Counted from the stretch's first letter, positions 1 to 18,654 are shown. The stretch: DNA of 64,000 nucleotides from Escherichia coli (GCF_003018115.1 NZ_CP027457.1); one strand, 5' to 3'. The notes: generated by a model from the letters alone, not told the origin. Program-made: numbers and translations.

Positions 1-989
1 TCGCAGAGCACTTTATTCCGTTCCTCAACGACCATATCAAGCCATTACTGGTAGGCCGCGATGTGGATGCTTTCCTGCCGAATGCCCGTTTCTTCGACAA
101 ATTGCGTATTGACGGCAACTTGCTGCATACCGCCGTGCGCTACGGATTATCACAGGCGCTGCTTGATGCTACCGCGCTGGCAACCGGCCGTCTGAAAACT
201 GAAGTGGTCTGTGATGAATGGCAGTTGCCACGCGTGGCGGAATCCATTCCATTATTTGGTCAGAGCGGCGACGATCGATATATCGCCGTCGATAAGATGA
301 TCCTTAAGGGCATCGACGTGCTGCCCCATGCGCTGATTAATAACGTCGAAGAGAAGCTGGGCTTTAAAGGTGAAAAACTGCGCGAATATGTCCGCTGGTT
401 GTCGGATCGCATTCTAAGCAAGCGCACCAGCGCACGCTACCACCCTACCCTGCACATCGATGTATACGGCACTATCGGTCTGATCTTCGATATGGATCCG
501 CTTCGCTGTGCGCAATACATCGCCAGCCTGGAAAAAGAAGCGCAAGGCCTGCCGCTCTACATTGAAGGGCCGGTCGATGCCGGTAACAAGCCCGACCAAA
601 TTCGCCTGCTGACCGCGATTACCAAAGAGCTGACGCGCCTCGGTTCCGGCGTGAAAATTGTGGCCGATGAATGGTGTAACACCTACCAGGATATTGTTGA
701 TTTCACTGATGCCGCCAGTTGTCACATGGTGCAAATCAAAACCCCGGATCTGGGCAGTATTCACAACATCGTCGATGCGGTTCTTTACTGCAATAGCCAC
801 AGCATGGAAGCGTACCAGGGCGGCACCTGCAATGAAACTGATGTCAGTGCCCGCACCTGTGTCCACGTCGCCCTTGCCGCTCGCCCTATGCGTATGCTGG
901 TAAAACCAGGGATGGGCTTTGACGAAGGCCTCGATATCGTCTTCAACGAAATGAATCGTACTATCGCGCTGTTGCAGGCTAAGGATTAA
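1..989 (+). CDS. 3-methylaspartate ammonia-lyase (methylaspartase), C-terminal ~330 codons; 5' end lies outside the window
   Basis: Frame (phase from base 3) is open from the window edge to the stop at 987-989. Translation carries methylaspartase/enolase-superfamily signatures LPHALINNVEEKLG, HIDVYGTIG, ADEWCNT, HMVQIKTPDLG, GGTCNET, KPGMGxDEG, matching clostridial methylaspartase as I remember it. Confidence 0.85.
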   Translation, partial: AEHFIPFLNDHIKPLLVGRDVDAFLPNARFFDKLRIDGNLLHTAVRYGLSQALLDATALATGRLKTEVVCDEWQLPRVAESIPLFGQSGDDRYIAVDKMILKGIDVLPHALINNVEEKLGFKGEKLREYVRWLSDRILSKRTSARYHPTLHIDVYGTIGLIFDMDPLRCAQYIASLEKEAQGLPLYIEGPVDAGNKPDQIRLLTAITKELTRLGSGVKIVADEWCNTYQDIVDFTDAASCHMVQIKTPDLGSIHNIVDAVLYCNSHSMEAYQGGTCNETDVSARTCVHVALAARPMRMLVKPGMGFDEGLDIVFNEMNRTIALLQAKD

Positions 990-992
990 CAA

Positions 993-2363
993 ATGGCTCG
1001 TTCTTTTAAAGTCTTATCGCCAACGGCAATCCTCGGGTATGGATTCCCGGAAGAGAGCTTCCGCAAAGCGATGGCAGAATCGCCCGATCTGATCGCCGTT
1101 GATGCAGGCTCTTCCGATCCAGGCCCCCACTACCTCGGGGCAGGCAAACCGTTTACCGATCGCGCAGGGGTCAAGCGCGATCTGCGCTATATGATCACCG
1201 CAGGCGTGCAAAATAATATACCGGTGGTGATCGGAACGGCTGGCGGTTCTGGTGCCGCACCACACCTGGAGTGGTGCCGAGAAATAATTCATGAGATTGC
1301 CCTGGAAGAGCAACTCGCGTTCTCCATGGCGTTGATCCCGGCAGACGTTGACAAAGCCATCGTCCACCAGGCGCTGGATAACGGCAAAATCACGGCGCTG
1401 GATTTTGTCCCGCCGTTAACCCACGACGCGATTGACGAAAGTACGTATATCGTTGCGCAAATGGGCATCGAACCCTTCCAGCGGGCGCTGAAAGAAGGCG
1501 CGCAAGTGGTGCTGGGCGGGCGCGCTTACGACCCGGCCTGCTTTGCTGCGCTACCGATCATGCAAGGCTTTGATGAAGGTCTGGCGCTGCATTGTGGGAA
1601 AATCCTTGAATGCGCGGCAATCGCCGCAACGCCCGGCTCAGGCTCTGACTGTGCGATGGGCATCATTGATGACAACGGCTTTACGCTGAAGACATTTAAT
1701 CCGAAGCGTAAATTTACCGAAACGTCAGCAGCTGCACACACACTGTATGAGAAATCCGATCCCTACTTCCTGCCAGGACCTGGCGGCGTGTTGAACCTGA
1801 AAGGCTGCACATTTAAAGCAGTCAATGACGGCGAAGTCTACGTCAGCGGTTCTAAGCATGAAGAAACGCCGTATGCCCTGAAACTGGAAGGTGCACGACG
1901 GGTGGGCTTCCGCTGTCTGACCATCGCCGGAACGCGCGACCCGATTATGATCGCCGGGATCGATAAAATCATCGATGAAGTCAAAACCAGCGTTTCGCGT
2001 AACCTGTCGCTCGACGATGACAGCATTCGCATCAATTTCCACCTGTACGGCAAAAACGGGGTGATGGGAGACCATGAACCGATGCAAACTGCCGGGCATG
2101 AGCTGGGGATTGTCCTTGATGTAGTTGCACCGACCCAGGAAATTGCCAATAGCGTTTGCTCGCTGGTGCGCTCTACCATGCTGCACTACGGCTATGAAAA
2201 CCGCATCGCTACCGCAGGCAATCTGGCGTTCCCGTTCTCCCCTTCTGATATCCAGGGCGGGCCGGTATACGAATTTTCCATATATCACCTGATTGAAGCC
2301 AACGACGCTCTGCGTTTTGATTTCCATATTGAACAGGTGACGCCAGAAGGAGTTCAGGCATGA
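993..2363 (+). CDS. hypothetical protein, 456 aa; tentatively DUF1446/AtuA-like
   Basis: ATG at 993 with AAGGA about 7 nt upstream, starting 4 nt after the methylaspartase stop. Long ORF with normal composition. Family assignment is from memory only and unverified. Confidence 0.6.
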   Translation: MARSFKVLSPTAILGYGFPEESFRKAMAESPDLIAVDAGSSDPGPHYLGAGKPFTDRAGVKRDLRYMITAGVQNNIPVVIGTAGGSGAAPHLEWCREIIHEIALEEQLAFSMALIPADVDKAIVHQALDNGKITALDFVPPLTHDAIDESTYIVAQMGIEPFQRALKEGAQVVLGGRAYDPACFAALPIMQGFDEGLALHCGKILECAAIAATPGSGSDCAMGIIDDNGFTLKTFNPKRKFTETSAAAHTLYEKSDPYFLPGPGGVLNLKGCTFKAVNDGEVYVSGSKHEETPYALKLEGARRVGFRCLTIAGTRDPIMIAGIDKIIDEVKTSVSRNLSLDDDSIRINFHLYGKNGVMGDHEPMQTAGHELGIVLDVVAPTQEIANSVCSLVRSTMLHYGYENRIATAGNLAFPFSPSDIQGGPVYEFSIYHLIEANDALRFDFHIEQVTPEGVQA

Positions 2364-2677
2364 AACAGTCAATTGTCTCACTGGCGCAAGTCATTCGTTC
2401 GAAAAATGCCGGACCTTACGAACTGGTTTTAGATATTTTATTTAAAACGAAAGAAAACTATGAGCGAGTTAAATCATCAGGGCAATTAACCCCAGAACTG
2501 ATTGCGCGCTTATATCATGTTGAACCTGACTTTATTCATCGTATTGTCTGGTTTGATCCTTCTAACGCAGTAAAAATCGTCATGCCACGAGATATTATCT
2601 CCGGGAATGTAGGTGACAATGATGTCTATGGTGCACAGCAACATGCACCTTTATTAAATATGAGTTTCGATTTGTAA
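2360..2677 (+). CDS. small hypothetical protein, 105 aa; tentatively the DUF4387-like partner of the preceding ORF
   Basis: Start overlaps the upstream stop (ATGA, 2360-2363), indicating translational coupling. Family assignment unverified. Confidence 0.55.
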   Translation: MKQSIVSLAQVIRSKNAGPYELVLDILFKTKENYERVKSSGQLTPELIARLYHVEPDFIHRIVWFDPSNAVKIVMPRDIISGNVGDNDVYGAQQHAPLLNMSFDL

Positions 2678-2760
2678 AAATCCGAATACTTTTAGCCAAC
2701 TGACATCCCGTCACTTATTGCAGTTCAACACTTCAGCTATTTGTAAGGTTGTAATAGCAG

Positions 2761-2792
2761 GTAGATGCCTGAATCTCTATTCAGGCATCTAC
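2761..2792. promoter_or_regulatory. perfect palindrome (14-bp arms, 4-nt loop) GTAGATGCCTGAAT-CTCT-ATTCAGGCATCTAC; possible intra-operon attenuator, RNA processing site or protein-binding site
   Basis: Read directly from the sequence, between the small ORF stop (2677) and the transporter start (2838). No clean T-run follows it. Confidence 0.4.
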
Positions 2793-2837
2793 TTCTCCTG
2801 ATTCTGATTTATCGCCGTGCACCTGATGGAGGAAAAA

Positions 2838-4118
2838 ATGAAGAAAATAAGTTTAACCACGATGATTCTTTTGGCGCTGGTACTTGGAATGATTATCGGC
2901 GTAGTGCTCAATAACACTGCTTCACCGGAAACCGCAAAACTCTATGCGCAAGAAATATCGATATTCACGACGATTTTCTTACGACTGATAAAAATGATTA
3001 TCGCTCCGTTAGTGGTCTCTACCCTGGTGGTAGGTATTGCTAAAATGGGCGATGCCAAAGCCCTTGGTCGTATTTTTTCTAAAACACTTTTTTTATTTAT
3101 TTGCGCCTCATTGCTGTCAATTGCCTTAGGCTTGATAACGGTAAATTTCTTCATGCCAGGCACAGGAATTAATTTTGTTGCACACGGTGCCGAAACCACA
3201 GGAGTGGTCGCGTCAGAACCCTTTACGCTAAAAGTATTTATTTCGCATGCTTTCCCCACCAGCATTGTCGATGCCATGGCGCACAATGAAATTTTGCAAA
3301 TCGTGGTGTTCTCAATTTTCCTCGGCTGTAGCCTGACGGCGATTGGCGAGAAAGGCAGCGCCATCGTTCACGCCTTAGATTCGCTGGCACATGCCATGTT
3401 AAAGCTCACTGGCTACGTCATGCTCTTCGCTCCCCTGACCGTATTCGCCGCTATTTCAGCATTGATTGCTGAACGAGGACTGGCCGTTATGGTGAGCGCC
3501 GGGATCTTTATGGGTGAATTTTATTTCACCATGTTATTACTTTGGGTGCTGCTTATCGGTCTGGCCATCGTTTATGTCGGCCCCTGCATCAGACGCCTGA
3601 CCCGCGCCCTTTCGGAACCCGCCCTGCTGGCATTTACCACATCCAGTTCTGAAGCGGCTTTTCCGGGAACGCTTGAAAAACTGGAGCAATTTGGCGTTTC
3701 CCCCAAAATTGCCAGCTTTGTCTTACCCATTGGCTACTCATTTAATCTCGTTGGATCAATGGCCTACTGCTCCTTCGCCACAGTTTTCATCGCCCAGGCC
3801 TGCAATATCCATTTATCCATCGGTGAACAAATCACCATGCTGTTGATCCTGATGTTGACCTCGAAAGGAATGGCTGGCGTACCACGCGCCTCAATGGTGG
3901 TTATCGCCGCCACGCTCAACCAGTTCAATATTCCGGAAGCGGGGCTGATCTTGCTGATGGGCGTTGATCCGTTCCTTGATATGGGGCGTTCCGCGACAAA
4001 CGTCATGAGCAACGCAATGGGCGCTGCGATGGTGAGTCGGTGGGAAGGCGAACATTTCGGCGAGGGCTGTCGGGGTAAAGCATTAAAACCCAATGAATCG
4101 AACGTTGCTCTGCCCTGA
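2838..4118 (+). CDS. dicarboxylate/amino acid:cation symporter (DAACS family, DctA/GltP-like), 426 aa
   Basis: ATG at 2838 preceded by GGAGG. Highly hydrophobic multi-helix protein with DAACS-like segments; the longer ORF from 2817 is probably an upstream extension. Confidence 0.8.
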   Translation: MKKISLTTMILLALVLGMIIGVVLNNTASPETAKLYAQEISIFTTIFLRLIKMIIAPLVVSTLVVGIAKMGDAKALGRIFSKTLFLFICASLLSIALGLITVNFFMPGTGINFVAHGAETTGVVASEPFTLKVFISHAFPTSIVDAMAHNEILQIVVFSIFLGCSLTAIGEKGSAIVHALDSLAHAMLKLTGYVMLFAPLTVFAAISALIAERGLAVMVSAGIFMGEFYFTMLLLWVLLIGLAIVYVGPCIRRLTRALSEPALLAFTTSSSEAAFPGTLEKLEQFGVSPKIASFVLPIGYSFNLVGSMAYCSFATVFIAQACNIHLSIGEQITMLLILMLTSKGMAGVPRASMVVIAATLNQFNIPEAGLILLMGVDPFLDMGRSATNVMSNAMGAAMVSRWEGEHFGEGCRGKALKPNESNVALP

Positions 4119-4225
4119 GGGGGATCTTAAGCAATCAGAAGCCAATGACTACGCATTTTTATAAGCCGGATCATGAAGTTAGACGGCAATTAAGTAACAC
4201 TAACGTTTAAGGTGAAAAGTGAAAT

Positions 4226-5878
4226 ATGTCCAAACCATTTATCTGGCAAGAACCGTTTCTACAAAATAAAGACGGTACAGAATATACATTAATTAGCGAT
4301 CAGCATATTACAGTAACGGAATTAGACGGCGAAGAAGTGATAAAAATCGCTCCTGAAGCATTAACGCTGCTTGCCCGGCAGGCATTTTATGAAGCCTCTT
4401 TTTTCTTACGTTCCGCTCATTTGCAACAGGTCGCCAGCATTCTTAACGATCAGCAGGCCAGTAGTAATGATAAATACGTTGCGTTGCAGTTATTACGTAA
4501 TGCTGAAGTCTCAGCAAAAGGGGTATTACCCAACTGTCAGGATACCGGCACCGCAACTATTGTTGCCAGTAAAGGGCAACAGATATGGACCGGAGGTAAC
4601 GACGCTGAAGCCTTAAGCAAAGGCATTTACAGTACTTTCCAGGAAAATAATCTGCGCTTTTCACAAAATGCGCCGCTGGATATGTATACCGAAGTCAATA
4701 CGCAAACCAATCTCCCGGCGCAGATTGATATCAGCGCTGTCGCTGGTGATGAGTACCATTTTCTCTGTGTTAATAAAGGGGGCGGCTCCGCCAATAAAGC
4801 CGCGCTTTATCAGGAAACCAAATCCTTATTGCAACCAGAAAAACTGACCGCATTTTTAATCGAAAAAATGAAATCGCTGGGCACCGCTGCCTGCCCGCCT
4901 TACCACATCGCCTTTGTCGTCGGAGGGCTTTCAGCCGATCAAACCTTAAAAGTTGCCAAGCTGGCCTCAACGAAATATTACGACAATTTGCCCACCAGCG
5001 GAAACGAGCAGGGACAAGCATTCCGTGATATTGAGCTGGAAAAAGCGTTGCTCGAGGCCAGTCAGCAATTTGGTATTGGTGCACAATTTGGGGGGAAATA
5101 TTTCGCTCATGATATTCGCGTCATGCGTCTGCCGCGTCACGGTGGCTCTTGCCCGATAGCTATGGCGCTCTCCTGTTCTGCCGATCGCAATATCAAAGCA
5201 AAAATTAACAAACACGGTATCTGGCTGGAAAAACTCGAACACAATCCGGGGCAATATATTCCAGCCTCATTGCGGGAAGAAAATCACGCGCAACATGTAC
5301 AACTGGATCTAAACCGTCCGTTGCGTGACGTGATGCTGGATCTCGCCAGATTACCGGTAGGCACCCGCGTGTCGTTAAGTGGTCCCATCGTAGTGGCGCG
5401 CGATATCGCCCACGCCAAAATAAAAGCGCGGCTGGATAGCGGCGAATCGATGCCGGAGTACCTGAAGCATCATATTGTCTATTACGCTGGCCCGGCGAAA
5501 ACACCGGAGAACATGGCCTGCGGTTCACTGGGTCCAACCACGGGCGGTCGAATGGACGGTTATATCGATACCTTCCAGGCGGCTGGCGGCAGTCTGGTGA
5601 TGTTATCGAAAGGTAACCGCAGCCAGCAGGTCACCGATGCCTGTCACAAACATGGCGGCTTCAATCTGGGAAGTATTGGCGGTGCTGCTGCGTTACTGGC
5701 GCAAGAATATGTCAAAAGTCTGCGTTGCCTGGAATATCCGGAGCTGGGTATGGAAGCGGTGTGGATGATGGAAGTGGAAAATCTGCCCGCATTCATCCTG
5801 GTAGATGATAAAGGCAATAATTTCTTTAGTCAGTTTGAGCAGCAACACCGCTGCGCCAGTTGCCCTGCGGGACATTAA
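4226..5878 (+). CDS. fumD: class I (Fe-S) fumarate hydratase paralog, 550 aa; candidate mesaconase (FumD-like)
   Basis: Near full-length similarity to E. coli FumA/FumB as I remember them (WQEPF, GVLPxCQDTGTA, [41 protein letters not shown], GSLGPTTxGRMD). The symbol is from my memory of a described O157:H7 mesaconase and is not verified. Confidence 0.75.
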
Positions 5879-5887
5879 GGAAAATGA

Positions 5888-6490
5888 ATGGAAGCGCGAA
5901 TTTCAACTGAACGGCATGTGCAGCGCCAACAGAAATTGAAGGAACAGGTCGATACGCGCGTCGCGGCGGCGATAGAGAAAAAAGGGATCTTGATTGTTTT
6001 CACCGGCAACGGCAAAGGGAAATCCACTGCCGCGTTTGGTACTGTGACGCGCGCGGTGGGTCATGGCAAAACGGTGGGGGTTGCGCAGTACATCAAGGGG
6101 CAATGGGACAACGGCGAATACAACCTTCTCCAGCCGCTGGGGGTTGAGTTTCATATTATGGGAACCGGTTTTACCTGGGAGACACAGAACCGGCAAGCGG
6201 ATATCGACGCGGCGAAAGAGGTCTGGTCGGAAAGCAAACGGATGCTGGCTGACAAGCGTTACGACTTAGTGGTGCTTGATGAGCTGACCTATATGCTGGC
6301 TTACCATTATCTGGATACCGAAGAAGTGATCGCTTCTCTGCAAAACCGCCCGGCACAACAAAGTGTCATTGTCACCGGACGCGGTTGCCACAGTCAGATA
6401 TTAAAAATGGCAGATACGGTCAGCGAAATCCGCCCCGTCAAACATGCTTTTGATAACGGCATACAGGCCCAGCCGGGTATCGACTGGTAA
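5888..6490 (+). CDS. ATP:cob(I)alamin adenosyltransferase, BtuR/CobA paralog, 200 aa
   Basis: P-loop VFTGNGKGKSTAAFG plus GFTWETQNR and LDELTYM motifs align along the whole length with E. coli BtuR as remembered. RBS AAGG upstream of the ATG at 5888. Confidence 0.85.
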   Translation: MEARISTERHVQRQQKLKEQVDTRVAAAIEKKGILIVFTGNGKGKSTAAFGTVTRAVGHGKTVGVAQYIKGQWDNGEYNLLQPLGVEFHIMGTGFTWETQNRQADIDAAKEVWSESKRMLADKRYDLVVLDELTYMLAYHYLDTEEVIASLQNRPAQQSVIVTGRGCHSQILKMADTVSEIRPVKHAFDNGIQAQPGIDW

Positions 6491-6493
6491 TAA

Positions 6494-6520
6494 CTGCGCC
6501 TGGCATCCTGCCAGGCGCAG
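6494..6520. terminator. hairpin CTGCGCCTGGCA-TCC-TGCCAGGCGCAG between convergent genes
   Basis: Perfect 12-bp inverted repeat lying between the adenosyltransferase stop (6490) and the LysR stop (6524), followed by GTTTTA. Confidence 0.5.
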
Positions 6521-6523
6521 GTT

Positions 6524-7429
6524 TTACATCTCCTGCGGTACGACCGATTTCGCCAGCAACCATTCACGAAATTGCTGCAAGTGCGGTGAGTCAGACTTCT
6601 CTTCCTGCCACGTCATAATAAAACGATTACCGGTACGAATAGGCACATCACAGGGGATCACCATATCGCCACTATCCAAATCATGTTGAATAGCGAACCG
6701 TGGTAACAGCGCCACGCCGAGATTAGAGCGCACGGCGGCAATCAGCATTGAAAGCAAATCGAAACGTGGTCCGTTGTTGACCAGCGGACTGCTAACGCCA
6801 GATAAAGCAAACCACTCTTCCCAGCCAGTAATACGGGTGCTTTGATGCAGAAGTGGTAACTCAGTAAGCAGTTCTGCCACTGACAGTTTTTGATCGGACA
6901 TTGCAAGCAAACTGCCGCTGCATACCGGCAAAATCTCCTCATCAAAGAGATATTCTACTTCCGCCCAGGGCGCGCAAAAATTTTCGCGCATAATGACAGC
7001 ATCGTACTCCCGATTAAGAAAATCGCCGTTATTAGCTAAAGAATGAATATTAACAATAATATCGGGATGTAACTTTGTGAATTCATGTAAATTTGGGATC
7101 AACCAGTGGGTACTAAAAGTAGGATTAACGGCAAGTTCAATAACCTGAACCGTAGGCTGCCAGGTCATAATGGTATTGGTATCGCGTTCCAGCTTATTTA
7201 ATGTTTCTTTTACTATCCCCAGGTAATACTTCCCTGCATCATTAAGAAAAATGCGTTTTTTAGAGTGTGAAAATAACGGAGTACGTAAAAATTCCTCCAG
7301 CGCACTTACTTGTCTGAATACTGCACTTTGGGTTAACGCTAACTCCTCTGCCGCTCTGGTATAACTTTCATGACGTGCGACGACCTCAAAAGTCACCAGC
7401 AGTTCCGTTTTAGGTATTTTCCCTCGCAT
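6524..7429 (-). CDS. LysR-family transcriptional regulator, 301 aa
   Basis: N-terminal HTH region (LTQSAVFRQVSALEEFL) and the usual ~300 aa length. Convergent with the pathway operon. Confidence 0.85.
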   Translation of the reverse strand: MRGKIPKTELLVTFEVVARHESYTRAAEELALTQSAVFRQVSALEEFLRTPLFSHSKKRIFLNDAGKYYLGIVKETLNKLERDTNTIMTWQPTVQVIELAVNPTFSTHWLIPNLHEFTKLHPDIIVNIHSLANNGDFLNREYDAVIMRENFCAPWAEVEYLFDEEILPVCSGSLLAMSDQKLSVAELLTELPLLHQSTRITGWEEWFALSGVSSPLVNNGPRFDLLSMLIAAVRSNLGVALLPRFAIQHDLDSGDMVIPCDVPIRTGNRFIMTWQEEKSDSPHLQQFREWLLAKSVVPQEM

Positions 7430-8194
7430 AATGCCTTCCGTGAAAAAAATAACAATTCAAAAAATTATTTTATAAAAAATAGTAGTGCTAATGAATATCA
7501 TAATTCAAATAAACAAACCAGTCAGCTATATGTCCAACCAGAAAAATAAAGTGACAATAATCCTAAAACAGAAATTTCACCTCAGTTATCCGCATGCAAT
7601 ACTTTAAAGCTATTATTGCAAGAATATTATTCATATACATGAATATACTCTAAATAACTCGAGTTGCAGGAAGGCAACAAATAATGAATTTCCAGAAACT
7701 TACATAAGTCAGTGGCCAGGGTGAGCGAACATCGATGCAGAACATGCAACTTGAAGTATGACAAGTATACAATGATAAATTTAGATACCCTATGTTATAT
7801 ATTATCTATGTCTGGTTAAATTGAATGAGTCATGGCCTTAAAAGACTTCGCAAAAGATAATTTCTCTTTAACAATAAGCCAGATTTACCACTTGTAAAAA
7901 TTGCTATCGCCACATACACTACGCGCGTTTTCTTTCCCTTTTGCTGGCTGCTGACCGGAAAGACAAAATTACCCTCGCAATACAGGGGGTTTTTTAACGT
8001 CTATATTTCAGGACAGCGTTATTCATCATCTTTCAAGGCTTGATAAAGCCTTTCTGCGCAAAGGGATCCAACTTTCCCGCGCCAACAATATTGTTTCATT
8101 ATCTCGTCCATCTGGTGCCAGTGCCCGCGTACTGCTGCCGGACGAACTACCGCTGGAAGAAAAAGCAGTAACACAACTGCTTGATTTTGCAGAA

Positions 8195-9418
8195 GTGAAG
8201 CTACCAGACCACCCAGGTTATGTGCGCCAGACGTGCGCGACGCCAGATTTTCACCCCGGCAATGGCGTCCCCGTTGGCGCGGTGGTGGCCTCAACGCCGG
8301 ATTTAGTCATTCCCGCCGCCATCGGCACCGATATTTCTTGCGGCATGCGGCTGCTAACGACTGGATTAACACTTGAGCAAGCCGAAGCGAATAAAGACGT
8401 CATCACTCAGCGGTTAACGCAAGTGCTACTGCAAAATGAGCGCGATGTTCCGTTATCCGCACAAGCGTTCACTGCGCTTTTTGATGGCGGACCGGCAGAT
8501 TACGTATCGACCTTGCCATCAGCAGGTCTCTGGACACGCACGAATATCCCCCGAATGGTACAAGAGATTGACCGCTGCATTGGGCTTAACGAGCATAACA
8601 GTCATTCGCGTTATGCCCCACCCGCCCTACTGGCAACGGACCGCGCATTACTCCGCGATCCTTGTCTGGGTACGCCAGGTTCAGGTAATCATTTTATTGA
8701 ACTTCAGGTGGTTGATAGCGTGGTCGATCGCCATGTGGCCTGGCAACAAGGGCTGAAAACGGGCGATATCGTGGTGATGATCCACAGTGGATCGCGAGAT
8801 GTCGGCTTTTACGTCGGACGACGCTGGATGGACCGTGCCCGTGCTGAATGGCCCGCCGGGCATAAACACCCACAAAGCGGGTTATATGGTCTGGCTGGTG
8901 GACTGGCGGAGGAATATCTACAAGCGATGGGAATGGCGGCGCGTTACGCATGGTTAAATCGCGTGACCATTGCGGAAATGGTTCGCGTATGTTTTGCCGA
9001 TTTATTTCATCAGGATGATTCACATCTGGTGGTGGATGTGCCGCATAACATCATCCTTCGCGAACATGAAATGAATATTCATCGCAAAGGTGCAACACCG
9101 GCACACGCGGGCGCTCTGGCATTAATCCCCGGTTCAATGGGCGATTATACGTGGCTTGCGGTAGGTTGCGGCAACTCGGAGTGGTTGTGGTCATGCAGTC
9201 ATGGAGCAGGACGCAGCCAGCGTCGGCAGGCGATGCGCTCACGCGCGACTGAAGAGTCAACGCTGCCGTGGCAATGCGTCACATTGCGTGAAGAACGACG
9301 TCTTGAAGAAGCGCCAGCTGCTTATAAAGATATTGCTCCGGTTATCGAAGCCCAACAAGAAGCCGGATTGATTCAGCCTGCGGTCAGATTACGACCGTGG
9401 TTAACGTTTAAGGGGTAA
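8195..9418 (+). CDS. RtcB-family RNA ligase homolog, 407 aa from the first canonical start (GTG at 8195)
   Basis: RtcB motifs DISCGM, GSGNHFIE, HSGSRDVG, HRKGAT, SCSHGAGR. The frame stays open for 80 codons upstream (7955-8194) with no ATG, GTG or TTG, so the true start is uncertain. Confidence 0.8.
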   Translation: MKLPDHPGYVRQTCATPDFHPGNGVPVGAVVASTPDLVIPAAIGTDISCGMRLLTTGLTLEQAEANKDVITQRLTQVLLQNERDVPLSAQAFTALFDGGPADYVSTLPSAGLWTRTNIPRMVQEIDRCIGLNEHNSHSRYAPPALLATDRALLRDPCLGTPGSGNHFIELQVVDSVVDRHVAWQQGLKTGDIVVMIHSGSRDVGFYVGRRWMDRARAEWPAGHKHPQSGLYGLAGGLAEEYLQAMGMAARYAWLNRVTIAEMVRVCFADLFHQDDSHLVVDVPHNIILREHEMNIHRKGATPAHAGALALIPGSMGDYTWLAVGCGNSEWLWSCSHGAGRSQRRQAMRSRATEESTLPWQCVTLREERRLEEAPAAYKDIAPVIEAQQEAGLIQPAVRLRPWLTFKG

Positions 9419-9433
9419 CTGAAATGATAAATG

Positions 9434-9526
9434 GCCTGCGGTTCTCACGCAGGTCAAATCTGGTATCTGCGTAAGCTAACAAACTTGTTTATCAACAATT
9501 TCAGGCCATCCGAAGATGGCCTGAAA
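9434..9526. terminator. two hairpins (CCTGCGGTTCTCACGCAGG and TTCAGGCCATCCGAAGATGGCCTGAA) between convergent rtcB-like and mngB
   Basis: Inverted repeats read directly in the 145-bp gap between convergent 3' ends. Confidence 0.45.
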
Positions 9527-9562
9527 TTGTTGCCCCCCTTAGATACACTTTAAGCGCAATAA

Positions 9563-12196
9563 TCAGCCAAGGCGGTAGCTAAATGTCCGTGACTGCCCCG
9601 GTAAAAATGCCCCCAGTTCCTTTAAATTATCTCTTTCCGCTGTGCTGATGCTTTCATCCATCATCGTTTGCGTACATGAAATCACCTCACGACTGAACGC
9701 AACAGTTGCCTCACAGGTTGTCGATTCTGCCGGATTAAACAGTCGCAATACCACTTCTTGCCGGTCCTCCGCTTTTTTAAGAGCGCTAATCAGGCATCCC
9801 ACAGGTGGCATTTTCAGCAAGCTATAGCTTTCCGGCACATTGAATCCGGCTTTATTTAACTTCATCGCATCCCATGGGATTTTGTTGTAACACTGTACTG
9901 GCGTCAGCCATGCACGCGCCTGCTGGGCTACACCGGCGGTCGCAGGCGTACCTGTATAACTTAATAAGCTCAGACGGCAGCTAAAGGAGCCACGTAATTG
10001 TGAATCGGGCACCGGCATTTTTATGCCTGAAGGACGTCCAGGCCTTAAAAGCAGATCTTCTTTGCCCAGTAAGCCCACGCCACGCAGCAACGTAATGGCA
10101 AAGGTTTTCTTCTCTTCACCGATGACTTCAAATTCACGTAGCCCTTCGCTAAAGACAGCCATGCCGTTACGCCCTTCCTGTAAGGCTGCATAGTTGAGCA
10201 TATTCCATACCGGAACCGGCGCTTCTTTCCAGCCTTCTTGCTGCCAGTTGTTCATTGCACTGTCGTTCACGGGGCGCGTTAGCGAACCAAACTGGGTATC
10301 TGCCAGAACACTATCGGTGTTAAAAGATGTAGGGATCAGGACGCGAAGGCGATGATCGTCAGCCTGGTTATCAAGGTTGATATCCACATCAATGCGCCTG
10401 CTGTTATGACTAAGAGTGACAACCAACTCCACCCCTACTCTACCCGTGGATTGCCGGGCGCTGCGTTCTTGCAGATTACGCGGCACCGCCATTTCATAGC
10501 GGATAACAGCCCTGCTCTGCCAGGCCTCATGAATAATCTCGCATTGCGGTTTCGCATTCGCCGAAGTAATTACCCACTCTTCTTTTGCGGGTGAATAGTC
10601 ATATTCATCACCATCATCAGAGCTTTCTTCAATTTGCAATACCCGGTCATAGCGCACACCGCTGTCTTTATCTACCAGTTGTAGCGTTCCATCCTCATTG
10701 AGCGCAATTTGCCAGAAAGCATTTTCCAGTATCCCTTCAGCGTCACTTTTTGCCGCAATCACGTTGCCAGGCTGATTCGCTTCGATATAAAGCGTTCGAT
10801 AGCCCATAGAAGGGACAATCTGGTTGATCTGAATATCAAACTCCATAAAGGGATCGTAATTACCGTAATGAACGATTTGCCGATCGATTAAGCCTGGATC
10901 GATCTCACGGGCATGGCGAATAAAATACGGTACAGGCTGACCGCGATCGTCTCGTAGATTAAACTGGCTGGCGCGCAGCCGCACAGTGGTGTTAATAACT
11001 TCTTCACGCGGCCAGGGCATCAGGTTAAACAGCACAAGTTTGTCGGCATCACTCTGTGGCATGTTATCGGCAATTTTGCGCATGTAGAAACGCAGCAGAT
11101 TATCCGCCATGTCTTCAGCCAGTTCGAAGCGGGCGACGATTTCGCGATGAACTTTGTCACTACAGCAGCAGCCGATGCTGTCGTGGGCATGATTTTTTAA
11201 GATCTCTTTCCACATTTTCTCCAGCAAGCCGTGGTGGTATTCAAAACCCAACGTCCAGGCCAGCGTTGCCAGCGGTTCCAGCAGATTAACAATCTTATTT
11301 TCAATACGTGCGTGGGCAACTTTGATATCCATGCGCGTGGAACCGATGGTGCGATGCACGCGCATATATTTGCCATCAATAAATTCACCTTTCAGGGTCG
11401 CCAGACTTTCACGCTGCGCTTCAATCTGCTCGAATACCTCTTCAAAGCGGCTCATCACAAACTTTCGTTGAGGATAAATTTCGCGAAGTTTCTCCATTAC
11501 TTCGAAGATATTTTGCTGCAATGGCATCTGGTCATGACCATTCGGCAGCAAAATCTCTTTGGTTACAGACGCTTTTTCCAGCACGTCAAAATAACTGTCG
11601 AGGCGTTTGCGTAATCCGTTTTCGTCCGCAGGTAAGTACTTACCGATGGCATAACCCAACGGCAGCACCTGCGCCGTCACTTCGCTACCGTCACTGCTTT
11701 GCCACAAAAACTCGTTTTTATCAGTACCGTGGCGCTCAGAACATCCACGCCAGAACATGGTGCGGGTAATGCCAAATCCATTGTAGATATGCGGCAGTTG
11801 CCCGGACATGCCAAAGGAATCCGGTAAATAACCTATTTTCATCGGCTCGCCAAACGCGAGGCAGTCACGCATTCCGTACATCAGATTACGGACGATGGAT
11901 TCCGCAGAAACAATCGTGGTATCGGTCTGGGTATACCAGGGGCCGATAATCAACTTGCCGGCTTCTACCAGTTTCTTCACGCGGTCTTTGTTTTCCGGTT
12001 TCACCGCGAAATAATCTTCGAGGATCGCCGTTTGCCCGTCGAGTACGTAATATTTGTATTCGTTGTCCTGTTCCAGTCGGCACAGGATCTCTTCCATATT
12101 ATTGACCAGCAGAATGCGTGACTCTTCGGTGGTGAAATACCACTCCCGATCCCAGTGCATATGCGGGGTGATGTGAACGCGAGATACCGCTTTCAT
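9563..12196 (-). CDS. mngB: alpha-mannosidase (mannosylglycerate hydrolase), 877 aa
   Basis: Length and sequence fit the family 38 glycosyl hydrolase MngB; position next to mngA. Confidence 0.9.
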
Positions 12197-12213
12197 CGTC
12201 GTTTCCTTTTTGT

Positions 12214-14190
12214 TTATGGCATTACGCCATCAGTCAGATAGTTGCCATGCTTAACCGCGTGACGCCGCCAGATAAGGAGAATTGCAGTCGAGATTGCAGC
12301 CCCCACCAATGCCGCACCAAACCAGCCAATTGCCGCCATAACACCGCCCGCGCCATTATCATGAAGTAAAAAGAGCGAGAAAATGCCGGCACCGGGTGTC
12401 GAAAGGCCGATATTCATCGCGCCGACAATAGCGCCCGTTACCATAGAGCCCAGCACAAACGAACCAATAACCCGCAGCGGATCTTCAATCGCCATCGGGA
12501 TCGCCCCTTCGGTAATACCTGCCAGCCCTAACAGCCAGGTGGATTTTCCGGTCTCAATTTCAAACTCTTTAAACAGGCGCGGTGCGAGCATCGTGGAAGC
12601 GGTTACGGTAAATGCCGAAACCATTTTGACGGAGGCGAAAATGGCATACGGGCCATAAACGCCGTTCGCCATTGCGCCCAGGCAGAATGCATAAGCGGCT
12701 TTGTTCACTGGCCCTCCAAGGTCAAAGGAACACATAAAACCGAGAATGGCACCCAGCAACAGCGCGTTACTTCCTGACAGACCGTTCAGCCAGGCGGTAA
12801 GCGAGTTATTGATCCAGGCGACAGGTTCCCCCACCACAAACAGCATCAGACTGCCCGCTCCCAATGTACCGAGCACCGGGTAGAGATAAAAAGTCAGGAA
12901 TCCATTGAATTTACTGCTAAGACGCAAGTGATTTTTCACCCAGCGCATCAGATAACCGGCTATCAATCCGCCAACGACCGCGCCGAGAAACCCGGAACCG
13001 ATCATGTTGGCGGCAAGTCCAGCCGCAAAGCCTGGCGCTAACGCCGGTTTATCTGCCAGTGAATAGGCGGTATAGGCCGCGAGCACCGGCACCATCAAAA
13101 TCCCGAGCATCCCGCCGCCCAGCTTGCGGTACATCCACAGCCAGGAGTTTTCTTCATTAAACAGATCTTGTAGCCCGAAGATTTGCGACAGTAATACCGC
13201 GACCGCCAGCACCGTGCCCCCCGCGACAATCAACGGTACGGCAAAAGAGATCCCGCTCAACAGTGCCTGTTTCAGCTCCGTTTTGACACTTTTCACCGGT
13301 TGCGTATCTTGCTGTACGATACGCGTCTCATCGCTACGCTTGAGGGTAAGCGCTTGTTGAATCAAAGCTTCTGCATGGCGAATCGGCTCGGCAACAGGCA
13401 CCGAAAGCGCGGGAATGCCGTTAAAACGCTCACTCTCCTTGATGGCGACTTCAGCCGCAAAAATACAGGCAGTTGCACTATTGAGTTGATCCGCCGTTAA
13501 ACGCCCTTCAATGCCGTTAGCACCTTGCTTTTCAACGTAGACATTCACGCCGAGTTTGCGTCCGGCTTTTTCCAGATACTCCGCAGCCATGTAGGTGTGA
13601 GCAATACCCGCCGGGCAGGCCGTTACGCAGACAATAGTTGGCGCGTTGGAAAAAGAGGCAGAAGGTTGCGTGCCTCCCTTGTCATCCAGCGCCGAGAGCA
13701 ATTCATCAGGCGTCGTCGCCGACTGTATACGCGCCCGAATCTCATCATCCGCCAGGCGCGTGGTCAGCGCTGTCAGCAGTTGCATATGCGTAGTACCCGC
13801 TTCATTGGGGGGAATCGCCAGCAACACCACTAAATCAACCGCTTCCGGGCCATCAACGCCTTCCCACTGAAGCGGCTCGCTGAGTGTGGCGACCGCAAAC
13901 GCCGCTTCTTTTACCGCAGCAGTTTTGCCATGCGGCACAGCCAACCCTTCACCTAAGGCGGTCGGGCCAAGGCTTTCACGGCGATACACTTCTTCCAGAA
14001 ATTGCTCAGTACTGGAAATTTTCCCCAGAGCAGCAAGACGTTGAGTCAACGCGTGGATGGCCTCTTCACGGCTGGTAAAGCGCGCATTCAGACACAACGC
14101 ATCGCGGTGGGTCAGAGTCGTCAGATTCATCATGATCCTCACTTGATCGTTTTTATAGTCGCGCCAGTGTGCCCGATAAAACAATACCAT
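12214..14190 (-). CDS. mngA: PTS 2-O-alpha-mannosyl-D-glycerate-specific EIIABC component, 658 aa
   Basis: N-terminal EIIA-like region, then EIIB and a hydrophobic EIIC domain; synteny with mngR and mngB. Confidence 0.9.
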
Positions 14191-14299
14191 TATGTGATCA
14201 ATTTCACTTGATTGAAATTATTTGTATTTTATTTGTATTATTTACAGGATGAGTTTATCGGGCATAATGGCTAAATTCGTATTAATGAGATGCTAAATC

Positions 14300-15022
14300 A
14301 TGGGACGGAAACCCTTATACCGACAGATTGCTGATCGCATTCGTGAGCAAATTGCGCGTGGCGAGCTTAAACCTGGCGATGCGTTACCCACTGAATCAGC
14401 GCTACAAACAGAGTTTGGCGTCAGCCGGGTTACGGTGCGCCAGGCTTTGCGCCAGTTAGTTGAACAGCAGATCCTCGAAAGTATTCAGGGCAGCGGGACT
14501 TACGTAAAAGAAGAGCGAGTCAATTACGATATTTTTCAGTTAACCAGTTTTGATGAAAAACTGACGGACCGTCACGTCGATACACACAGTGAAGTTCTGA
14601 TATTCGAAGTGATTCCGGCTGACGATTTTCTTCAGCAACAGCTACAAATCACCCCGCAGGATCGTGTGTGGCATGTGAAGCGCGTGCGCTATCGCAAGCA
14701 AAAGCCAATGGCGCTGGAAGAAACCTGGATGCCGCTTGCGTTGTTCCCGGATCTCACCTGGCAGGTCATGGAAAATTCGAAATATCACTTTATCGAAGAA
14801 GTGAAGAAAATGGTTATCGATCGTAGCGAACAGGAAATCATTCCTCTGATGCCAACCGAAGAGATGAGCCGTCTGCTTAATATCAGCCAGACAAAGCCGA
14901 TTCTTGAAAAAGTATCGCGTGGATATTTAGTTGATGGTCGGGTGTTTGAATATAGCCGCAACGCTTTTAATACCGATGACTATAAATTTACCCTGATAGC
15001 GCAGCGAAAATCATCGCGATAA
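14300..15022 (+). CDS. mngR: GntR/HutC-family repressor, 240 aa
   Basis: N-terminal GntR HTH (LPTESALQTEFGVSRVTVRQAL); divergent from mngA. Confidence 0.9.
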   Translation: MGRKPLYRQIADRIREQIARGELKPGDALPTESALQTEFGVSRVTVRQALRQLVEQQILESIQGSGTYVKEERVNYDIFQLTSFDEKLTDRHVDTHSEVLIFEVIPADDFLQQQLQITPQDRVWHVKRVRYRKQKPMALEETWMPLALFPDLTWQVMENSKYHFIEEVKKMVIDRSEQEIIPLMPTEEMSRLLNISQTKPILEKVSRGYLVDGRVFEYSRNAFNTDDYKFTLIAQRKSSR

Positions 15023-17436: not shown

Positions 17437-18654
17437 CTACACGTCCAGCAGCAGACGCGTCGGATCTTCCAGCAACTCTTTGATCGTTACGAGGAAGCCC
17501 ACGGATTCGCGACCATCGATCAGACGGTGATCGTAGGACAGCGCCAGGTACATCATCGGCAGGATCTCAACCTGACCATTCACCGCCATCGGACGATCTT
17601 TGATAGCGTGCATACCCAGAATTGCGCTCTGCGGCGGGTTGATGATAGGCGTAGACATCAGGGAACCGAACACACCACCGTTGGTGATGGTGAAGTTACC
17701 ACCGGTCAGATCTTCAACCGTCAGCTTGCCGTCACGGCCTTTAACTGCCAGCTCTTTGATTTTCTTCTCGATGTCTGCCATGCCGAGGGTATCGACATCA
17801 CGCAGTACCGGCGTCACCAGGCCGCGCGGCGTAGAAACCGCCATGCTGACGTCGAAATAGTTGTGGTAAACCACGTCATCGCCGTCGATAGAAGCATTCA
17901 CTTCCGGGTAACGTTTCAGGGCTTCAACCACCGCTTTCACGTAGAAGGACATAAAGCCCAGACGGATGCCGTGGCGTTTTTCAAACGCTTCACCGTACTG
18001 CTTACGCAGATCCATAATCGGCTTCATGTTGACTTCGTTGAACGTGGTCAGCATGGCGGTGGAGTTTTTCGCTTCCAGCAGACGCTCTGCCACACGCTTA
18101 CGCAGGCGAGTCATCGGGACACGTTTTTCACTACGTGCAGCCAGAGCCGGTTGCGCCGCCGGAGCAGCCGCTGCCGGTGCAGACTCTTTCGCCGGGGATT
18201 TCGCCAGATGTTTTTCCACATCTTCACGGGTCAGACGACCACCCACACCGGTGCCTTTAATGGCGCTGGCGTCGAGGTTATGTTCAGCCAGCAAGCGACG
18301 GATCGCCGGGCTTAACGCATCGTTGTTTTGCTCTTCCAGAGACGCCTGCTGGCGTTGCGCCGGAGTGGACGCTTTCTCTTCAGATTTGGCGCTGGTTTCT
18401 TTACCGGCGCTGTTGCCTTCACGCAGGCGACCAAGGATCTGACGAGACGTTACCGTTGTACCTTCATCTTCCAGAACCGCATCCAGAATGCCGTCTGCTG
18501 ATGCCGGTACTTCCAGTACCACTTTGTCAGTTTCGATTTCTACCAGCACTTCATCACGTACGACTGCGTCGCCGGGTTTTTTATGCCAGGTTGCGACGGT
18601 GGCATCGGCTACGGATTCAGGCAGGTCAGGGACCAGAATATCTACGCTACTCAT
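17437..18654 (-). CDS. sucB: 2-oxoglutarate dehydrogenase E2 (dihydrolipoyl succinyltransferase), 405 aa
   Basis: Lipoyl domain at the N-terminus, Ala/Pro-rich linker, catalytic domain with the DHRLIDG motif. Confidence 0.95.

Follow-up and report, generated by a model that had tools for sequence, protein, structure and literature searches.

Layout of the segment between cydA and mngB

The window, a 64,000-nt stretch of Escherichia coli DNA (GCF_003018115.1, NZ_CP027457.1), carries in positions 1–9559 the rightmost two thirds of an accessory segment, 15.5 kb long, that lies between cydA and mngB and that K-12 lacks. The features of this part of the window and its flank are the following:

1–989, + strand: mal, methylaspartate ammonia-lyase, 3′ 329 of 413 codons (PGAP coding sequence at L001 11748–12989)
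993–2363, + strand: cmlA, predicted large citramalate lyase subunit (AtuA/DUF1446 family)
2360–2677, + strand: cmlB, predicted small citramalate lyase subunit (DUF4387; PDB 9erq_B, E = 5.2e-57)
2838–4118, + strand: SDF/DAACS dicarboxylate or amino-acid:cation symporter (PGAP start at 2838)
4226–5878, + strand: fumD, class I fumarase, mesaconase (NF011921 equivalog)
5888–6490, + strand: cobO, ATP:cob(I)alamin adenosyltransferase (NF004637, TIGR00708)
6494–6520, unstranded: hairpin at the point where cobO and the LysR gene converge, its 12-bp stem containing 9 G-C pairs
6524–7429, − strand: LysR-type (GcvA-like) regulator gene, convergent with the operon
7448–7912, unstranded: AT-rich filler, 465 bp, configuration-specific, with an ERIC/IRU-like dispersed repeat at 7635–7769
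8021–9418, + strand: stand-alone RtcB-family RNA ligase paralogue, 465 aa (Pfam RtcB)
9419–9559, unstranded: junction spacer between the RtcB gene and mngB; K-12 homology resumes at 9560
9563–12196, − strand: mngB flank, intact, 877 codons, with a 3′ end unusually divergent from K-12

The window itself starts inside mal, and the glm genes are taken from the PGAP annotation of an identical genome. E. coli F9792, of the O169:H41 clone, is 100% identical to window positions 1–9560 and supplies the view of the left flank, where two AT-rich hypothetical genes, glmS, glmL, glmE, and the start of mal are found. The full non-K-12 segment measures 15,537 bp (L001 6023–21559) and replaces 470 bp of K-12-specific sequence; it runs past the left window edge, as the preliminary description had it, and K-12 lacks it entirely at this position. 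The segment of positions 1–9420 in that description is a real accessory segment, and each gene listed for it is present by the ORF list, the PGAP annotation of the 100% identical genome, and NCBIfam and Pfam; its right end, however, lies not at 9420 but, by blastn against K-12, at 9559, 3 bp from the mngB stop at 9563. The shift in GC content suspected there is also observed, with a drop to 35–37% over 7000–8000 followed by 53–56% in the RtcB gene.

Divergence from K-12 increases toward the island on both flanks. Within mngB, identity to K-12 is 80% at 9560–9859, 89% at 9860–10159, 92–97% up to 11659, and mostly 96–100% afterwards; by megablast, the 3′ 940 bp of the gene are 88.5% identical to K-12-type strains. 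A sensitive blastn search of the junction at 9419–9559 against K-12, O157, and hut spacers gave no significant match.

Pathway genes and the predicted citramalate lyase

The mal gene starts 252 bp to the left of the window, which carries codons 85–413; the ORF list entry at 63–989 is part of this 3′ portion. Mal scores 539.9 bits against the equivalog model TIGR01502 (cut-off 286). Directly upstream in the identical genome (L001 8447–11748) are glmS and glmE, for the B12-dependent glutamate mutase, and glmL, for its reactivase, the very genes that had been expected upstream of the window. FumD reaches 1277.7 bits with NF011921 (cut-off 1060), and CobO reaches 295.6 bits with NF004637 (cut-off 185) and 246.6 bits with TIGR00708 (cut-off 167.75). 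The symporter, whose frame is also open from a GTG at 2817, matches the NCBIfam DctA and GltP models at ~1e-90, yet below their cut-offs; it was named GltP by Kronen and Berg (PMC4682846), and from its position it is presumed to import glutamate (or a C4/C5-dicarboxylate). The LysR protein, at 221.5 bits with NF008352, likewise falls below the cut-off; a LysR gene occupies the equivalent place in the Pseudescherichia and Enterobacter islands, and its position next to the operon makes it the presumed regulator of it. Between the convergent cobO and LysR genes, the hairpin at 6494–6520 is the best terminator-like site within window positions 1–9700 and, by its consensus match, is likely a bidirectional terminator. 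An Rfam search at a permissive E-value over window positions 1–9700 and L001 5600–12100 returned nothing, including no cobalamin riboswitch.

The two AT-rich hypothetical proteins on the left flank (314 and 140 aa) have no match in NCBIfam, PHROGs, or PADLOC, results that leave a reading as a defence system or toxin-antitoxin pair unsupported, and a Pfam scan of the 314-aa protein was also without a match.

The two ORFs following mal, described as unknown in the preliminary description, match solved structures. CmlA and CmlB share ~92% identity with PDB 9ERQ/9EVF, “citramalate lyase subunits A and B”, with chain 9erq_B deposited as “Citramalate lyase, subunit B (cmlB)”; the entries, released in October 2025, are titled “Citramalate lyase - AMPPNP - citramalate complex” (9ERQ) and “Citramalate lyase - ADP - pyruvate complex” (9EVF), and an adenine nucleotide is present in both. 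The 3′ end of cmlA and the start of cmlB share 4 nt. The cmlA-DUF4387 gene pair is conserved across phyla: the order glmS-mutL-glmE-mal-cmlA-cmlB-...-fumarase is kept in Rifleibacterium, and in a Holophagaceae contig cmlAB adjoins a split class I fumarase. The Raoultella planticola Cml enzyme, obtained as a gift by the authors of a preprint (bioRxiv 10.64898/2026.01.16.699985), was used in vivo there, whereas the proteins considered here are its E. coli orthologue as known from sequence. The identity to the solved enzyme, the PDB titles, and the in vivo use of the Raoultella enzyme together suggest that CmlAB cleaves (S)-citramalate. Literature searches found no primary paper on CmlAB. In public annotation, cmlA appears as “AtuA family” or, wrongly, as “3-methylaspartate ammonia-lyase”, and cmlB as DUF4387; gene context by itself also points to DUF1446/DUF4387 as the missing lyase, in agreement with the PDB entries.

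With this assignment, the citramalate step left open in 2015 would be filled by CmlAB, completing a sequence from glutamate through methylaspartate, mesaconate, and (S)-citramalate to pyruvate plus acetate. We consider it very probable that window positions 1–7447 are the distal two thirds of an enterobacterial methylaspartate-pathway operon and that this is an old polymorphism, not a recent mobile element. In the proposed route, the SDF symporter would import the substrate; GlmS/GlmE, with B12 and the reactivase GlmL, would convert L-glutamate to (2S,3S)-3-methylaspartate; Mal would remove ammonia to give mesaconate; FumD would hydrate mesaconate to (S)-citramalate, a step for which the biochemistry comes from the O157:H7 protein; and the two-subunit CmlAB would yield pyruvate plus acetate. 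CobO would supply adenosylcobalamin, and the convergent LysR protein may regulate the operon. The gene set and the upstream glm genes thus bear out the route from glutamate to mesaconate to citramalate proposed earlier. Clostridium tetanomorphum and C. tetani also convert glutamate to pyruvate plus acetate by this chemistry, with the same families of mutase, reactivase, and ammonia-lyase; in place of the fused FumD and the unrelated CmlAB found here, they have MesAB, a split mesaconase, and a CitDEF-like lyase complex that depends on an acyl carrier.

The preliminary description was correct that such a cluster with a mesaconase exists in O157:H7. Kronen and Berg described the glutamate-fermentation cluster of E. 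coli O157:H7 in 2015 and identified FumD as a mesaconase, with a kcat/Km of 2e6 on mesaconate and of 7.5e5 on fumarate (PMC4682846). Both clusters share the order of two hypotheticals, glmS, glmL, glmE, mal, DUF1446, DUF4387, transporter, fumD, cobO, and LysR; DNA identity is 99.3% over window positions 1–7447, and the proteins are 97–100% identical (545/550 residues for FumD, 410/413 for Mal). The O157:H7 cluster also lies between cydA and sucD, but it is without mngRAB and has only remnants of hut and rtcB, in contrast to the intact RtcB gene and mngRAB here. The island is already known, since the 2015 paper covered the cluster, FumD, and how the cluster is distributed, and structures of the missing lyase were deposited in 2025; what is added here is the mosaic nature of the interval, the occupation of the same interval in other genera without mobility signatures, and the separateness of RtcB, with its ATG to ATT change.

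That the pathway operates in E. coli is what its genes suggest; in O157:H7, no activity was detected. Under the conditions tried by Kronen and Berg, O157:H7 neither grew on glutamate nor was stimulated by it, and methylaspartase activity was not found (PMC4682846). The absence of detected expression, activity, or growth benefit lends some weight to the notion, which we regard as possible though rather unlikely, that the cluster does not serve glutamate fermentation and either carries another flux, for instance the use of mesaconate, citramalate, or methylaspartate from outside the cell or the release of nitrogen from glutamate or histidine, or is a silenced, cryptic operon. The Holophagaceae contig, with cmlAB and fumarase and without glm or mal, indicates that a mesaconate/citramalate module can stand alone, the operon and the LysR gene are both preceded by AT-rich DNA of the sort that H-NS may silence, and in 144 genomes a hut cluster, of which glutamate is the end product, adjoins the island. 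Against this notion, all twelve proteins are intact and 97–100% conserved between distant E. coli lineages, the order from glmS through cmlB with a downstream class I fumarase is conserved as far as Rifleibacterium, and a dedicated B12 adenosyltransferase and a mutase reactivase make sense only if glutamate mutase is used. Under the methylaspartate-pathway reading, and with corrected names for cmlA and cmlB, the full route from glutamate to pyruvate and acetate is encoded by about one in five complete E. coli genomes.

History of the cydA-sucD interval

The interval between cydA and sucD has at least four configurations in E. coli and holds mngRAB, a hut cluster, and the stand-alone RtcB gene in different combinations. 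Among 5426 genomes, ~1,130 have the island, 143 in the form seen here and 144 with hut. The window represents the combination of island, RtcB, and mngRAB and belongs to an O169:H41 ETEC clone; the placement beside mngB given in the preliminary description applies here, but it is a minority arrangement (143 of ~1,130 island-bearing complete genomes), and in O157:H7, which lacks mngRAB, the island is found by itself. Pseudescherichia vulneris and an Enterobacter carry the operon in this interval too. Neither a tRNA gene nor an integrase or transposase gene occurs in the segment, and its two breakpoints share no repeat of 9 bp or longer in direct or inverted orientation. The segment is very probably not a recent mobile integrant but an old polymorphism, present or absent between cydA and sucD, and the locus illustrates that alternative catabolic cassettes can occupy a fixed chromosomal interval without mobile-element machinery.

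The contrary view, that the 15.5 kb are a classical mobile genomic island recently inserted by mngB through site-specific recombination or transposition, could appeal to the absence of the segment from K-12 and most E. coli and to its heterogeneous GC content, with AT-rich ends of 27–37%. This view is largely refuted, and we judge it very unlikely: besides the missing mobility genes and breakpoint repeats and the shared interval in the two other genera, flank identity to K-12 falls gradually to 80–88% with no sharp break, and the decayed hut and rtcB remnants of O157:H7 show deletion from a larger ancestral array.

Within the reading as an old polymorphism, a more specific history may be suggested, tentatively: that Enterobacteriaceae share, between cydA and sucD, an ancient plasticity locus for amino-acid catabolism, of which the hut-bearing form is ancestral and the window a hut-less recombinant with mngRAB. 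The accompanying proposal that O157:H7 is a deletion derivative of the hut-bearing form is held with equal reserve. In ~2.7% of complete E. coli genomes, the hut cluster, which takes histidine to glutamate, lies next to the glm-mal-fumD-cmlAB operon, which would take glutamate on to pyruvate plus acetate, an arrangement that makes a contiguous histidine-to-pyruvate block beside a conserved stand-alone RtcB gene. Significant hut or K-12 remnants were found in neither the filler nor the junction. The hut-linked configuration points to a testable condition, namely histidine plus B12 under anoxia. If the hut and glm clusters are co-regulated via the LysR gene between them, histidine rather than glutamate could be the natural inducer; if true, this would account for the failure to find conditions of expression.

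The RtcB paralogue and the AT-rich filler

The RtcB gene comprises 465 codons, and Pfam RtcB (PF01139) covers residues 63–465 (E = 1.7e-95). The six active-site residues of the Pyrococcus horikoshii enzyme, D95, C98, H203, H234, H329, and H404, are all identical in the alignment, so that the two-metal site and the GMP-accepting histidine are complete. These features, the RtcB domain and the complete metal-binding and GMP-histidine residues, are shared with K-12 RtcB (rtcBA operon) and the PrfH-associated RtcB2. Unlike those, the paralogue scores below both subfamily cut-offs (207.9 vs 407 for NF007153 and 172.5 vs 271.8 for TIGR03073), and rtcA, rtcR, and prfH are all absent from its neighbourhood; at 465 aa it is also longer than K-12 RtcB, which has about 408 aa. 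PADLOC gave no match. Full-length homologues of 465 aa occur in Pseudomonas, Burkholderia, and others.

The gene starts with ATT in this clone and with ATG in two sister sequences (L007 and L008), and 5 of 283 genomes carry its exact window sequence. The GTG at 8195, the earliest canonical start codon of the frame, was rejected as the start, since homologues are 465 aa long with the N-terminal 58 residues conserved and the sister alleles have ATG at 8021.

The preliminary description counted the RtcB gene among the island genes; it is instead a separate module, common to hut-bearing strains and lost in O157:H7. That it is a functional island member, for example by coupling RNA repair to the pathway or its regulation, is most improbable despite its intact catalytic residues and its position adjoining, and divergent from, the LysR gene, given that in ~850 island-bearing genomes, including O157:H7, it is missing or reduced to remnants of 57 and 40 bp, that 8.7 kb separate it from the island in hut-bearing strains, that the Pseudescherichia and Enterobacter islands are without it, that its homologues in Pseudomonas and in a further gammaproteobacterium are solitary genes in unrelated surroundings, and that its ATG is lost in this clone.

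The entire AT-rich filler is found in only 144 genomes, and a sensitive blastn search for hut or K-12 remnants within its 465 bp gave nothing significant. The ERIC/IRU-like repeat at 7635–7769 has inverted arms at 7644–7668 and 7745–7769. Its 135-bp core is present in 2–10 copies in 5425 of the 5426 genomes at ~83% identity, and in another strain a copy sits in the spacer between pgk and fbaA.

Genes of the island and their continuation to the left

The left end of the window carries part of a glutamate-fermentation (methylaspartate) operon, as the preliminary description had interpreted it, and the finding is real. The ORF list for window positions 1–13000 gives a run of plus-strand ORFs up to 6490, followed by a minus-strand gene, an AT-rich gap, and a plus-strand ORF ending at 9418. 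Together with the PGAP names in strain F9792 and the concurring NCBIfam and Pfam results, this list upholds the gene content first proposed.

Genes of the window, named from the PGAP annotation of F9792 (mngB also from the ORF list)
to 989, plus strand: methylaspartate ammonia-lyase (mal), partial
993–2363, plus strand: AtuA-family protein (cmlA)
2360–2677, plus strand: DUF4387 protein (cmlB)
2817/2838–4118, plus strand: dicarboxylate/amino-acid:cation symporter
4226–5878, plus strand: class I fumarate hydratase (fumD)
5888–6490, plus strand: cobO
6524–7429, minus strand: LysR regulator
ORF ending at 9418, plus strand: RtcB-family protein
9563–12196, minus strand: mngB, 877 codons

In a megablast search of 5,426 complete E. 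coli genomes, positions 1–9560 are 100% identical in five chromosomes, including F9792, F8111-1SC3, and two O169:H41-typed strains. The F9792 locus (L001, whose coordinates exceed those of the window by 12000) continues the operon leftwards with glmE, glmL, and glmS; the upstream glutamate mutase genes, whose absence had been named as evidence against the interpretation, are thus present in this identical genome. Beyond glmS, towards cydA, the island closes with a stretch of 37% GC that contains two hypothetical genes (L001 6452–7396, 314 aa, and 7477–7899, 140 aa), and then comes the cydA upstream region. NCBIfam, PHROGs, and PADLOC gave no match for either hypothetical protein, nor did Pfam for the larger one of 314 aa. 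A strong hairpin at 6494–6520 lies between the convergent cobO and LysR genes, and no Rfam family, the cobalamin riboswitch included, was matched anywhere in the island.

Citramalate lyase and the encoded pathway

The cluster is already published: a 2015 paper covered all of it, gave its frequency in E. coli as 26.5%, listed the DUF1446 gene without a known function, called the fate of citramalate unclear, and identified no expression condition for the cluster genes (PMC4682846). The enzyme that was still lacking has been identified since then. In a PDB sequence search, the cmlA product matches chain A of 9ERQ/9EVF, “Citramalate lyase, subunit A (cmlA)” (E=4.7e-292), and the cmlB product matches chain B of the same entries, “subunit B (cmlB)” (E=5.2e-57). 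The AlphaFold model (30 homologues, pLDDT 86) superposes on 9evf_A at TM 0.92; this entry, titled “Citramalate lyase - ADP - pyruvate complex”, was released on 2025-10-08. No primary paper on the CmlAB enzyme was found in the literature; in vivo work on Raoultella planticola Cml reports growth dependent on mesaconate and on the lyase (bioRxiv 10.64898/2026.01.16.699985). The two ORFs previously listed as unknown now have an answer as the predicted citramalate lyase subunits CmlA and CmlB.

Gene context in other phyla supports this assignment. Orthologues of CmlA from distant phyla share over 60% identity; the order in Rifleibacterium is GntR, glmS, mutL, glmE, mal, cmlA, cmlB, an unknown ORF, and a class I fumarase, and a Holophagaceae contig has cmlAB beside a split class I fumarase, without the mutase. 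An ORF of 317–323 aa with no Pfam match is conserved 3′ of cmlB in both (L009 11712–12665 and L010 11714–12685, respectively), occupying the position of the SDF transporter in enterobacteria. The match of CmlA to Pfam AtuA is weak (66 bits), and CmlA therefore represents a divergent AtuA subfamily; the founding member of AtuA still lacks an assigned function. Publicly, CmlA and its homologues P0122, P0180, and P0192 are labelled “AtuA family protein” or, wrongly, “3-methylaspartate ammonia-lyase”.

FumD scores above the cut-off of the FumD-type equivalog NF011921 and is identical to the O157:H7 protein at 545 of 550 positions; all twelve proteins are intact and 97–100% identical to their O157:H7 counterparts. 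With the CmlAB assignment and its conserved context, the pathway predicted from sequence is complete from glutamate to pyruvate and acetate. GlmSE would convert glutamate to methylaspartate, with GlmL reactivating the mutase and CobO providing adenosylcobalamin; Mal would then yield mesaconate, FumD (S)-citramalate, and CmlAB pyruvate plus acetate. The cluster also carries the symporter and the LysR regulator.

Boundaries and rearrangement of the cydA–sucD interval

Boundaries were set by blastn of the K-12 sucB–cydB region against L001. K-12 homology ends at L001 6022 (373 bp 5′ of the cydA start) and restarts 3 bp past the mngB stop, at L001 21560 (window 9560). The accessory segment between these limits is 15,537 bp, of which the right-hand 9,559 bp lie inside the window, and stands in place of 470 bp found only in K-12-type genomes. 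No tRNA gene was found at the segment, no integrase or transposase is annotated in it (PGAP, F9792), and its breakpoints share no repeat of at least 9 bp.

The breakpoints are not sharp. Identity to K-12 is 80% at 9560–9859, 89% in the following 300 bp, 92–97% up to 11659, and mostly 96–100% past that point; upstream of cydA, it is 87.7% at L001 5504–5802, the last 300-bp window measured, versus 97–100% within cydAB. The core flanks (window 9560–11659; L001 5504–6022) thus diverge progressively towards the island, identity falling to 80% at the 3′ end of mngB and to 88% on the cydA side, which indicates old linked haplotypes around a presence/absence polymorphism.

Among the 5,426 complete genomes, about 1,130 (21%) match window 1–7447, and in only 143 does the match extend across RtcB as far as mngB.

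Configurations from cydA to sucD
A, K-12: mngBAR only
B, O157:H7: island; mngRAB absent
C, this window: island, 465-bp filler, RtcB, mngBAR
D, EM10-18-28: island, 8.7-kb hut cluster, RtcB

Configuration D occurs in 144 of 5426 genomes. Its hut cluster (L008 16357–25011, between the LysR gene and RtcB) encodes a HAL-family lyase, hutG, hutI, hutD, an NCS1-type permease, and hutU. Compared with D, the window lacks hut, has the filler (7448–7912) in its place, and carries mngRAB (9414–15022) as an insertion that separates rtcB from the sucD downstream region. Within the filler is a 135-bp repeat (7635–7769; imperfect inverted arms 7644–7668 and 7745–7769), which we take to be an ERIC/IRU element; it is dispersed and intergenic, with 2–10 copies at ~83% identity in 5425 of 5426 genomes. 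Decayed pieces of the HAL-family gene and rtcB persist in O157:H7, so its form probably derives by deletion from a D-like array.

In Pseudescherichia vulneris the operon has cydA and sucD as its immediate neighbours, and in an Enterobacter contig mngR and sucD flank it, so that mngRAB and the operon have their sides exchanged relative to the window. Together with the E. coli configurations, these placements lead us to reject a recent insertion beside mngB; the island is most plausibly a long-standing resident of the family's cydA–sucD interval that has undergone repeated loss and reshuffling. The 314- and 140-aa hypothetical genes are kept in configurations B, C, and D and missing from the Pseudescherichia and Enterobacter islands. 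In the Enterobacter island (L013), a glutaminase gene is added between transporter and fumD, and the LysR gene has a PocR/AraC-type regulator beside it (13119–14135 and 17499–18389).

The hut-linked configuration D suggests to us histidine as a candidate for the substrate on which E. coli turns the operon on. Glutamate is both the hut end product and the island substrate.

The RtcB paralogue

The RtcB protein has a full Pfam RtcB domain and, in alignment, all six catalytic residues of Pyrococcus horikoshii RtcB; it scores below the cut-offs of the NCBIfam models of both named RtcB subfamilies. It belongs to a 465-aa family with members in Pseudomonas, Burkholderia, Variovorax, and others, which outside E. 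coli stand alone, without rtcA, rtcR, or prfH. The start codon (8021–8023), ATG in sister alleles of E. coli (L007 7520, L008 25120), is ATT in the window through a G-to-T change at 8023. Of the 283 gene-bearing genomes, only 5 have exactly the sequence of the window around the start, all in the window-identical clone, and we read the ATT as a probable clone-specific weakening of translation initiation rather than evidence of special function. On the plus strand, a hairpin with a T-run behind it, resembling a terminator (7971–7990), lies ~30 bp upstream of the start codon, inside the block that the window has in common with hut-bearing strains, and could be a chance occurrence or a leader element.
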